Below, piece by piece: positions 7,425 through 32,634 of a stretch of DNA of 64,000 nt. The notes below the pieces were generated by a model. That model was not told the DNA's origin. It worked only from the letters and a program-made list of their open reading frames with translations, and made no database searches. Both the position numbers and the translations under genes were made by a program. The DNA comes from an uncultured delta proteobacterium. Lineage in GTDB: Bacteria > Myxococcota > UBA727 > VGSZ01. Every line of letters begins with the position of its first letter. The first letter of the stretch is position 1. The stretch spans positions 1 through 64,000 of the forward strand of contig CAVZJB010000003.1 in assembly GCA_963775425.1 (NCBI GenBank), read 5' to 3'.

Positions 7425-8885
7425 TCAGTTCCTGCAGCGCGAGGTGAACGCACGCAGCAGGTTCTGCCGGGCGAACTGGTCCTCACGGAACGACCACAGA
7501 TCGAACTTCTTCTCGGTGTCGACCTTGCCCTTCGCGGGCAGCTTGATGGCGCAGTACCACCCGAGCCCGCGGGTACCCACGACGAGCTTCTCCCCGACGT
7601 TCGCCTCGATGCCGTTCACGTTGGCACCGGCGGGGATGAACCAGCTCTTCTTCTCGCCGGGCGTCTCGAGCTTCTTCGGCGGGAGCTGGCGCGGGTCCCA
7701 GCCAAGCTCACCGCCCTCGTCACCGACGCGCAGCGTGGCCACGAACCCGATCTCGGGGTTGCCGTCGACCTTGCCGTCGTTCTTCGGCAGCTTGTTCTCC
7801 ATCTCGACGACCCAACCGCCGCCGGGCGTGTCGGGCCCGTCCTCGACGCGGCTGACGACGATGTGCGGCGGATCGAAGTCTGTCTTCAAGCGCGCTTCTT
7901 CACCGCGGTAGACCACCGGCTTGAGCTCGTCGTTGAGCGCCTTGCCGTCGGGCCCGAAGAACTGGACCTTGTTCATCTTCTCCGCGCGCTTCTCCTCGAC
8001 CTTCGCGTGGTCGAAGAAGTCCGCGGCCACCTGGTCCGACGAGATCTTGAACTTCTTGAGATCGACCTCGACGGTGCCCTCGGCCGGCAACGGGATGTTC
8101 ACGCTCCCGTAGCCGCGCACGCCGGCGCGCAGCTCGCGGCCCGCTTGCGCGATGACGCCGTAGTTGCCGCTGGCCTCGATGCGCTGCATCGCCGCCGAGT
8201 CCTTGTCGGGGCAGGCCATCGACTCCAGGCCGAGGCCGGAATTCTTCTGCGCGCCCTCGAAGACGCACGTCCCGATCCACGGCGTGTCGCCCTTGTTCTG
8301 GAAGCGCACCTCCCAGTGCGACAGCGAGCCACCCTTGCCCGGCACGGCGGTGACGCTGACCGTGCCCGCGCACGGTGGGCCCTTCCTCTTGGCGGCGAGG
8401 AGCTGCTCCACGCGCGCGCGGATGGCGTCCTTGCCTTGATCGAGGTGCAGCTTGTTCTGCGCCTGCGCCGCATAGCTGCGCATCGACGCCGTGCTGTGCG
8501 CGGCCTCGTTGCCGTACCACTGGAAGTCCTTGAAATCGATCTCGATCATGTCGCCGTCGAGGGGCGGGAGCTCGACGGTGGTCACCGCCGCGCCGCGCAG
8601 ACCGACGCGCAGGAGCGCACCTTCCTGGATGGTGACCGAGCCGCCGTTGCCCTGGTGCGTGTAGACGTCGCCGTACTTGAACGCGAGCCGGCTGCCGTCG
8701 TTCGGGTTCACGGGCAGCCCGTGGCCGTACTTCACGTGGTCGTCGTGGACCCTGAGGTTCTCCTGCCCCTTCTGCAGGACGTTGTGCGTCACGCCGATCT
8801 CGCGATCGCCCTCGTTGACGACGAGCATCTCGTACGTGCGCTCCTTCTCGTTGGGGACGATGAAGACCTTGCCGCGGATGGGCAT
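7425..8885 (-). CDS. Hypothetical protein, three-module beta-rich family (paralogue 1)
   Basis: Clear similarity to 29583..31022 and 31120..32634 (YGH, LRVGLRG, GLGLESM, GNYGV, GVRGY, GLGW); TGATG coupling to the upstream gene. Confidence 0.85.
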   Translation of the reverse strand: MPIRGKVFIVPNEKERTYEMLVVNEGDREIGVTHNVLQKGQENLRVHDDHVKYGHGLPVNPNDGSRLAFKYGDVYTHQGNGGSVTIQEGALLRVGLRGAAVTTVELPPLDGDMIEIDFKDFQWYGNEAAHSTASMRSYAAQAQNKLHLDQGKDAIRARVEQLLAAKRKGPPCAGTVSVTAVPGKGGSLSHWEVRFQNKGDTPWIGTCVFEGAQKNSGLGLESMACPDKDSAAMQRIEASGNYGVIAQAGRELRAGVRGYGSVNIPLPAEGTVEVDLKKFKISSDQVAADFFDHAKVEEKRAEKMNKVQFFGPDGKALNDELKPVVYRGEEARLKTDFDPPHIVVSRVEDGPDTPGGGWVVEMENKLPKNDGKVDGNPEIGFVATLRVGDEGGELGWDPRQLPPKKLETPGEKKSWFIPAGANVNGIEANVGEKLVVGTRGLGWYCAIKLPAKGKVDTEKKFDLWSFREDQFARQNLLRAFTSRCRN

Positions 8886-31119: not shown

Positions 31120-32634
31120 GTGGCGATCAAGGGCACCATCTTCGTCCATCACAACGCCGCCACGCGGCAGCTCGAGGTACACGCCGTGAATCACGGCGAG
31201 TCGCCCGGCACGCTGACCCACAACATCCGCGCCACCGAGGTCGAAGCGTTCAACGAGTCGGGCGTCACGCAGCACGACAATCAGAGCTACGGCCACAACA
31301 ACCCGACGCCCGCGGGCACCGACCAAAACCCGCAGACGGCGACGATGCAGTTCCCCATCGGCGGCACGTACAAGTCCGAGGATCTCACCGGGCATCAGCG
31401 CATCCCGCGGCCGGTGACGATCCAGCCGGGCATGTGGCTGCGCGTAGGCTTCCGGCAGCGGGCGTTCGCGGCGCTGCCCATCCCGCCGCCGGGAGGCATC
31501 GTCGAGATCCCGTACGAGTCGATGAAGCCGCAGACCAACAGCTCCATGGCGAGGTCGCAGTGGGCCAGTTACTACCAGTTCCTCGGGTTCAACCCGGAGC
31601 CCATGGTGCGCAGCGGCAATCACGTGCCGCCCGCGCTGAAGGCCATGCTGGCGCAGCGCTCACCGCACGTCGTGAAGGGCAGCGTGACCATCGCCCCCGT
31701 CGCGGACGAAAAGGATCCGAGCGTGCTGCGCGGCTGGGACGTCGTCGTGAAGAACGACGCCACCGGCACGCCCAAGGAGGGTGAGACCCACGGCTTCACG
31801 GCGACCGTGGTGCTCACCGACGGCGCCGGCGTCGGCGAAAAGAACGCGGGGCTCGGGCTCGAGTCGATGCCGTGTCCGGGCGAGGGGACCGAGGCGCGGC
31901 AGCACATCGTCGCCGGCGGCAGCTACGGCGTGCAGGCGGACCCGGGCTGTCCCGTGCGCCTCGGCATCCGCGGCTATGCGTCGGCCGAGAGCACGCTCCC
32001 GCAGCTTCACGAGGGCCCGCGCACCCTCGACCTCGCTGCGTTCACGCGATCGTTTGCGGACACGCAGAGCGATTGGTTCGACGGCGACAAGCTCGGCGCC
32101 AAGCTCGGCGAGAAGAAGAACCGCGTGGACTTCTTCGCAAACGGCAAGCGCATCAACGACACGCTCCCCGACACCATCTACACCGGCAACGAGGCCGTCG
32201 AGCGCGCCGAGTTCAAACAGCCACCGAAGGTGGTGGTGAAGCGAGTAGCGGCGAGCGAGGAGCGGCCGGCGGGCTGGGAGGTGTCGGTGGAGAGCCTCTT
32301 GCCCGACGCCGACAAGCTCGGCCCGGTCGGCTTCAAGTGCAAGCCGTGGATCGACGTCGACGGCAGGCTCGTGAGTGCCCGCTGCATGACGAAGACGGCG
32401 CTCACGCCCACCAAGCGAAGCGCCACGTGGTTCATCCCCGCCGACGCCGAGGTGGGCGGCGCCGCGTTGAAGAAGGGCACGCCGCTCGTCATCGACACGG
32501 GGCCGCTCGGGTGGCGCGCCACCATCCCGCTGCCGGGCGCGCGGGAGACGTTCGACTCCACGGCAGACCCGCTTGCGACCTGGGTGCTGCGCGAGAGCGA
32601 CTACCACCGCGCCGGCCTGATCATCGGCTCGTGA
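31120..32634 (+). CDS. Hypothetical protein, three-module beta-rich family (paralogue 3)
   Basis: MAIKGTIFV..THN..YGH..LRVGFRQ..KNAGLGLESM..YGV..RLGIRGY..WFIPA..LGW. Confidence 0.85.
   Translation: MAIKGTIFVHHNAATRQLEVHAVNHGESPGTLTHNIRATEVEAFNESGVTQHDNQSYGHNNPTPAGTDQNPQTATMQFPIGGTYKSEDLTGHQRIPRPVTIQPGMWLRVGFRQRAFAALPIPPPGGIVEIPYESMKPQTNSSMARSQWASYYQFLGFNPEPMVRSGNHVPPALKAMLAQRSPHVVKGSVTIAPVADEKDPSVLRGWDVVVKNDATGTPKEGETHGFTATVVLTDGAGVGEKNAGLGLESMPCPGEGTEARQHIVAGGSYGVQADPGCPVRLGIRGYASAESTLPQLHEGPRTLDLAAFTRSFADTQSDWFDGDKLGAKLGEKKNRVDFFANGKRINDTLPDTIYTGNEAVERAEFKQPPKVVVKRVAASEERPAGWEVSVESLLPDADKLGPVGFKCKPWIDVDGRLVSARCMTKTALTPTKRSATWFIPADAEVGGAALKKGTPLVIDTGPLGWRATIPLPGARETFDSTADPLATWVLRESDYHRAGLIIGS

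Follow-up and report, generated by a model that had tools for sequence, protein, structure and literature searches.

The first 64 kb of contig 3 (CAVZJB010000003.1) in an 8.26-Mb genome of an uncultured member of the Myxococcota, hereafter the window (64,000 nucleotides, 70% G+C), encode three paralogous proteins that each carry an internal threefold repeat of a beta-rich module, belong to a very rare family and are inherited together with a constant group of large enzymes and of dark proteins. The paralogues are labelled here parA (7425-8888, minus strand), parB (29577-31022, plus strand) and parC (31120-32634, plus strand); L004-L034 denote the loci, and G-numbers the genomes, of our comparison set. 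The parB-type protein occupies the position that a vWA-domain protein holds in related operons encoding a giant AAA+ homologue. We favour, at a probability of about 0.35, a reading in which the par proteins act in the cytoplasm as non-catalytic adaptors or scaffolds and bind partner proteins. No known kind of system corresponds to the module family, to its architectures or to the gene set inherited with it; the fold class as such is an ordinary one, and the giant partner has its origin in a known AAA+ clade.

Module repeat and predicted fold

The internal threefold repeat of homologous modules of ~120 amino acids is real. A sequence-only reading of the window had described three paralogues with three internal modules each; the corresponding open reading frames (ORFs) are present, with third-position GC of 0.88-0.93, high as in real genes, and both a profile comparison and a module hidden Markov model (HMM) agree with the description. 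In end-to-end alignment the other two paralogues were 50% and 34% identical to parA, and the motifs that had been listed as common to all (YGH, GLGLE(S/A)M, YGV and WF(I/L)P) were invariant across the three proteins. The family alignment (A2, 24 sequences) was cut into the three proposed modules, and these were compared profile against profile. Module 1 matched module 2 with a probability of 98% (E 2e-13) and module 2 matched module 3 with 94.8% (E 5e-8); the comparison of modules 1 and 3 gave just 54% (E 1e-4).

A combined module HMM was run on all 63,302 six-frame ORFs of the genome, where the three paralogues, with three domains each, topped the list. Beyond them the HMM matched two further proteins of the window, P0004 (E 4.7e-4) and P0005 (E 0.17), and no other ORF at E < 1. 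A single module copy had been proposed for P0004 and is well founded, its family with orthologues added matching the module profile at 97.4% (E 1.4e-11). The weaker copy proposed for P0005 gave just 66% (E 5.5e-5), and a diverged module in this protein is therefore probable but weak.

An AlphaFold2 model of parB, computed from A2, had a mean predicted local distance difference test score (pLDDT) of 91 and a predicted template modelling score of 0.67, with beta-rich domains at residues ~7-119, 176-277 and 342-462, each of about eight strands, joined by helices. Structure prediction bore out the three beta domains. Foldseek with the whole model against the PDB returned nothing at E <= 1e-3 (TM-score <= 0.16), and we discount as noise the rows that name neurexin, clostridial neurotoxin binding domains and sliding clamps. 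Three BFVD matches at E <= 1e-3 were rejected (TM-score <= 0.15). The par profile had 0 matches among PDB sequences, and its best ESM Atlas score was 0.79, to unnamed small clusters. The suggestion of a lectin-like or aegerolysin-like fold gained nothing from these searches, with no such Pfam match and none among the fold matches listed, although absence from that list does not rule a family out.

The family had been called unrecognised, and it stays so: P0001-P0005 matched 0 families in Pfam and NCBIfam (E 0.01) and in PADLOC and PHROGs (E 0.1), and the fused and B-type relatives described below also matched 0 families, save for sub-threshold matches of P0064 to Filament (21 bits) and ORF_12_N (20 bits). 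A phage or defence origin of the module proteins was rejected, PHROGs and PADLOC being without any family for them.

No hydrophobic N-terminus or membrane segment was found in the three par proteins (maximum 19-residue Kyte-Doolittle value 0.66-0.91), in line with the earlier statement that they lack signal peptides; judged by sequence, they are cytoplasmic. The M-P start, ascribed to most of the module proteins, holds for two paralogues (MP(I/V)xGK) but not for the third (MAIKG).

Rarity, subfamilies and other module architectures

The par family is very rare. A word-indexed search of 5.8 billion cluster representatives returned 27 proteins, all unnamed or 'hypothetical', the labelled ones being from Myxococcota or Archangiaceae metagenome-assembled genomes (MAGs), and a HMMER profile search of the kind outlined in the sequence-only reading, run in full over 1.84 billion representatives, returned 80 par-family proteins at E <= 0.001. 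Our genome collection held 21 par loci in five MAGs (1, 3, 4, 5 and 8 per MAG). The distribution is patchy, with several copies per holder, because the family occurs in 5 of 401 sampled genomes of the phylum, spread over four taxonomic families, and in only one of the ten other genomes of the window's own taxonomic family. A limited, word-based search of the literature, which does not prove absence, found no account of the family or of the gene set.

A maximum-likelihood tree was built from all 25 full-length or fused par copies. In it, parB groups with the giant-linked orthologues L004, L005 and L006b (100/99), parC, the most diverged subfamily, with L023, L021 and L006a (100/100), and parA with L011 (92/98), whose orthologue is 57% identical and has the same upstream partner. 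Each paralogue thus has its own clade with orthologues elsewhere, and the three are therefore old subfamilies; the earlier description of the family as 'locally expanded' was misleading.

The upstream partner of parA is P0108, a B-type module protein whose true start is probably Met24, at ~10732. In its family (alignment A4) the N-terminus is a beta domain, the helical region varies in length, and the C-terminus is a copy of par module 2 (hhalign probability 99.8%, E 1.5e-27) that includes the helix and strand found after module 2 in par; the C-terminal sandwich has diverged in P0108 and in its L011 orthologue. The AlphaFold2 model of P0108 (pLDDT 76) gave generic helical-bundle fold matches alone, and the protein had 0 matches among PDB sequences. 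A par gene is preceded by a B-type gene in L011, L021 and L033, and also, by a weak match, in L013.

A further architecture is found in MAG-51 (L016-L024), which has a smaller genome of low GC content (0.42-0.46). At least six complete genes, and one more truncated where its contig ends, code for a variable N-terminus of ~500 amino acids followed by the triple module; they are scattered singly among housekeeping genes, and their N-termini had no family match. The seven fused copies form a separate clade (100/100).

The giant AAA_5-like protein and the vWA slot

The parB-type protein occupies the vWA slot of the giant operon. A giant protein with a helical-repeat region and degenerate tandem AAA_5-like modules adjoins a par gene in all six full-length loci (the window and L004-L008), L010 having a short form. 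It is a single gene elsewhere (1711, 1676, 1920 and 1575 amino acids); in the window it is split into ORFs 24100-27315 and 27153-29168, the halves overlapping at 27129-27144 around a C5 run, which points to a genuine frameshift or to an assembly indel in the homopolymer. The small ORF between the giant and parB, P0113, had no family match; counterparts of it occupy this place in L004, L005 and L006, and in L007 the giant is followed by an ORF of 134 amino acids.

Sequence comparison indicates that this large subunit is homologous to proteins of the MoxR/midasin clade. The window giant itself had no AAA_5 Pfam match, the giants of L007 and L008 match AAA_5 weakly (22-25 bits, cut-off 22), and in the ESM Atlas a giant orthologue lies beside midasin/AAA_5 clusters (0.87-0.88). 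A giant orthologue gave 0 matches against PDB sequences, and a word-based homologue search with the giant C-terminal region returned the query itself alone. Walker A is lost from module 1 in six of six par-branch giants and from module 2 in four of the six, the window giant having lost both; only those of L007 and L008 keep GPxSSGKS in module 2.

A profile of the giant C-terminal region had matches in 16 of the 401 genomes. Close orthologues (E < 1e-245) were confined to four of the five par holders, and distant relatives (1350-1780 amino acids, E 1e-52 to 1e-20) were found in par-less genomes. At five distant loci the giants have an N-terminal helical region homologous to that of the window giant, strong tandem AAA_5 domains (5/5, E 1e-33 to 1e-43) and, in four, AAA_lid_7. 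All five adjoin a vWA-domain gene, with a small ORF in between at three (L027, L029 and L030), and none has a par module. The P0113 family shows a weak profile link to the small ORFs of these vWA-type operons (42%, E 2.6e-4). Conversely, an HMM built from the five vWA partners had no match in the window or in L004-L024 (21 par loci; best E 0.019, to an unrelated ORF), and no vWA Pfam match was obtained among the ORFs scanned.

Two published accounts treat the vWA protein of MoxR/midasin-clade systems as a co-chaperone that binds the substrate, and give the vWA association as the rule in this clade, dynein excepted (PMC3495828, PMC7159879). Compared with these systems (RavA-ViaA, CbbQ-CbbO, midasin), the par operons share a giant homologous to Myxococcota proteins with tandem AAA_5 and a midasin-type lid, and keep the order of giant, small ORF and third gene. 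They differ in that the third gene encodes a triple beta-sandwich protein non-homologous to the vWA protein, that Walker A is gone in most of their giants, that two of the three par subfamilies do not lie beside the giant and that a fixed set of large enzymes travels along.

In other Myxococcota genomes, open frames of ~4100-4200 amino acids (G073:C162, G056:C190, G088:C58 and G083:C1) show weak matches to the AAA-like region of the giant (E 1e-11 to 1e-19) and may be a still larger branch of the giant family. In L007, a neighbouring gene for a 1434-amino-acid protein (17106-21410, minus strand) combines a weak ATLF-like (lethal-factor N/C) match (E 1.9e-8) with classic AAA domains.

Co-inherited enzymes and dark proteins

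The large enzymes and dark proteins in Table 1 form a fixed set that is co-inherited with the par proteins. Between 10837 and 34620 the plus-strand genes overlap or leave only tiny gaps, and stop/start overlaps link P0108 to parA and the giant through P0113 to parB.

Table 1. Features of the window discussed in the text (positions count from the first letter of the window)
Feature	Position	Strand	Description
Thiol genes	2291..7381	+	methyltransferase-BshB-BshC and separate BshA-like GT4 (~6101-7381); convergent with parA
parA	7425..8888	-	triple-module protein, 487 amino acids; start overlaps stop of upstream gene 8885-10801
P0108	8885..10801	-	B-type module protein: N-terminal beta domain, helical bundles, C-terminal diverged beta-sandwich
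P0004	10837..11583	+	single-module protein, 248 amino acids
M14 carboxypeptidase-like	11589..13067	+	PF00246, E 2.8e-12; co-inherited, orthologues in L032 and L034
P0109	13077..15134	+	685 amino acids; no family match
PPDK-like/acyltransferase	15131..19717	+	1528 amino acids; swivel and PEP-binding domains, internally duplicated; C-terminal acyltransferase
Esterase protein	19737..23531	+	1264 amino acids; central PF00756 esterase domain
P0005	23562..24059	+	small Cys-rich protein
Giant	24100..29168	+	helical-repeat and degenerate tandem AAA_5-like; two ORFs
P0113	29165..29599	+	conserved small ORF, 144 amino acids; overlaps giant stop (ATGA) and parB start
parB	29577..31022	+	triple-module protein, 481 amino acids
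parB modules	~29577-29960, 30069-30446, 30579-30986	+	
parC	31120..32634	+	triple-module protein, 504 amino acids
Methyltransferase-like + PIG-L (Mca/MshB-like)	33034..34620	+	deacetylase or amidase; paralogue of N-terminal part of gene at 2291

P0109 was found in exactly the 5 of 401 genomes with par; its search used a stricter first look, and the counts are therefore a floor. The PPDK-like/acyltransferase protein occurs in three of the four other par holders (full-length in G147, G112 and G348), and in G147 and G112 its gene adjoins the P0109 orthologue. Residues ~93-533 of this protein resemble residues 643-1114, each being a swivel and PEP-binding half; it has no recognisable ATP-grasp N-domain, and its acyltransferase domain falls just below the Pfam cut-off (21.1 against 23 bits). 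Esterase orthologues are present in all four other par holders, with synteny in L032/L033 and L034. Orthologues of P0004 adjoin the PPDK-like gene in L032 and L034, and an orthologue of P0005 lies beside a par gene in L006.

In MAG-51, one contig carries, in this order, the M14-like protein, P0109, the PPDK-like protein, the single-module protein and the esterase, and another carries, again in order, the esterase, a B-type protein and par. The order in an Archangiaceae MAG is PPDK-like, single-module protein, M14-like, esterase, B-type protein and BshA-like GT4. Co-inheritance and synteny in other genomes back the functional tie between the module proteins and the neighbouring enzymes that the sequence-only reading had suspected. 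Its description of these neighbours as leadered did not stand, the enzyme N-termini being low-complexity or extra-domain, with no shared motif by eye.

Low-molecular-weight-thiol genes and island edges

Low-molecular-weight-thiol genes flank the par genes in the window. The 1696-amino-acid 'ORF' at 2291-7381 is not one clean gene, its middle reading as Arg-rich and out of frame. The first frame encodes BshC positions 6-144, fused to methyltransferase-BshB, and the frame 4668-5984 takes BshC up again at positions 161-383; the BshC split looks like a second likely indel, and the methyltransferase-BshB-BshC fusion appears unusual. In L009, from an Archangiaceae MAG, a true MshC (583 bits, cut-off 485) and a methyltransferase stand directly upstream of par (7875-9972). 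L006 and L010 have a methyltransferase, fused to PIG-L in L006, and L015 has a GCS2-like gene. Two different cysteine-adding systems, mycothiol-type in L009 and, at the corresponding place, bacillithiol-type in the window, are thus seen beside one family.

Immediately to the left of the co-inherited genes, where the contig begins, lie a truncated phage-integrase gene (1376-2098, minus strand) with the SAM-like N domain alone and three features at 3-959, 752-1351 and 1141-1464 (all minus strand) that, by the look of their sequence, we take to be IS66-like fragments. A tRNA-bounded island was rejected, the window having no tRNA. The first gene past the co-inherited set on the right (34754-35680) encodes a lipoprotein-like signal (…VASVGAC…), had no family match and is probably outside the system.

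Interpretation and alternatives

From the repeat module, the cytoplasmic location, the co-inheritance and the occupation of the vWA slot we infer an adaptor or scaffold role. The par proteins, each made of three homologous eight-stranded beta-sandwich modules, would be subunits of a conserved, patchy gene set. Their modules would bind other proteins, the most probable partners being the large enzymes nearby or the giant, through a candidate surface formed by the conserved exposed pattern WxVxFxN, GxGLE, YG and RxGxRG, and would assemble or hold the enzymes together as a vWA adaptor would, without ATP-driven remodelling in this genome. A complex prediction that paired parA with both terminal beta domains of P0108 gave a score of 0.00 and a mark of 0.32, which speaks neither for nor against binding.

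Several points weigh against an adaptor role. The par proteins and the N-terminal regions of the vWA partners showed no homology (hhalign probability 0.1%), and replacement in an operon slot shows position, not equivalent function. Genes of the parA and parC types are not adjacent to the giant. G147 (70% complete) has par genes and no giant match; its triple module is mostly fused behind variable N-termini of ~500 amino acids and scattered among housekeeping genes, a pattern that suits a fixed subunit of a complex no better than a portable domain for targeting or anchoring. Finally, module 1 has the invariant polar residues H49, D50 and H57 and module 2 has K216 and E223, and these could form a metal, ligand or catalytic site instead of a protein-binding surface.

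An extension of the adaptor reading, which we regard as unlikely, would have a MoxR/midasin-type AAA+ protein fossilised into a static hub of ~1700 amino acids, with triple beta-sandwich proteins replacing the vWA adaptor; par, the beta-helical-beta rods of the B-type and the single-module proteins would then hold the three giant enzymes in a cytoplasmic compartment or metabolon, in which a low-molecular-weight-thiol conjugate derived from cysteine would be made or used.

On present evidence the favoured reading and four rivals cannot be told apart. The first, which we consider unlikely, is that the beta-sandwiches act like C2 domains and the B-type protein like a BAR- or spectrin-like scaffold, tethering the acyltransferase and the esterase to the inner membrane face. 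Like multi-C2 proteins (PKC, synaptotagmin, rabphilin), par has tandem eight-stranded beta-sandwiches of ~120-130 amino acids, and C2 domains were the commonest top fold matches for par module 3.

Slightly less likely again is self-assembly, in which par would polymerise together with the B-type and single-module proteins to form a lattice, shell or filament that encloses or organises the large enzymes nearby; this is the structural role raised in the sequence-only reading. Several paralogous module proteins and module-bearing helical-rod proteins in one co-inherited set, the long extra N-terminal regions of the enzymes and the lack of a secretion signal in par would suit such an assembly, but these enzyme N-termini have no shared targeting motif by eye, and no known shell, S-layer or filament protein was among the fold matches listed. 

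Apart from these readings, par has a parallel within the myxobacteria in Protein S of Myxococcus xanthus, which is leaderless, with internally repeated beta domains and tandem paralogues, and which differs from par in its beta-gamma-crystallin fold and its spore-coat role; no similarity to it surfaced in the searches made.

It is improbable that the triple module is a portable C-terminal domain that sends variable cargo to a partner, to the surface or to non-classical export. The singly scattered MAG-51 fusions and their lineage-specific clade would be explained in this way; against this, the stand-alone forms of the window have no cargo domain, there is no signal peptide and no secretion-system gene is adjacent in the loci examined, and MAG-51 also keeps a stand-alone par beside the enzyme set. 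Equally improbable is a cryptic enzyme or a metal- or ligand-binding protein for a thiol-type metabolite of the adjacent genes, for which the His-Asp...Gly-His loop of module 1, invariant with Asn, Thr, Tyr and Arg, the invariant Lys...Gly-x-Gly-x-Glu of module 2 and the differing kinds of thiol genes that adjoin par (BshA/B/C in the window, MshC in L009, GCS2-like in L015, methyltransferase-PIG-L in L006) can be cited, although the searches found no likeness to any enzyme family or solved enzyme, module 3 has no polar motif and the thiol-gene adjacency may merely reflect a shared island.

Implications

The par family is rare, and its general importance is therefore limited. Its module is a well-folding domain of the common beta-sandwich class that is represented in no family library and by no solved structure, and it marks a co-inherited set of ~12 genes, mostly dark too, in a handful of Myxococcota genomes. 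The module is also tied to unusual fused thiol genes, bacillithiol-type here and mycothiol-type in a relative. If the metabolon reading were true, the set would be a previously unseen kind of bacterial enzyme-organising assembly. The window offers a natural case of a MoxR/midasin-type AAA+ system without ATPase motifs or a vWA adaptor and with a different, adaptor-like protein, and this change of slot bears on how AAA+ chaperone systems are rewired.

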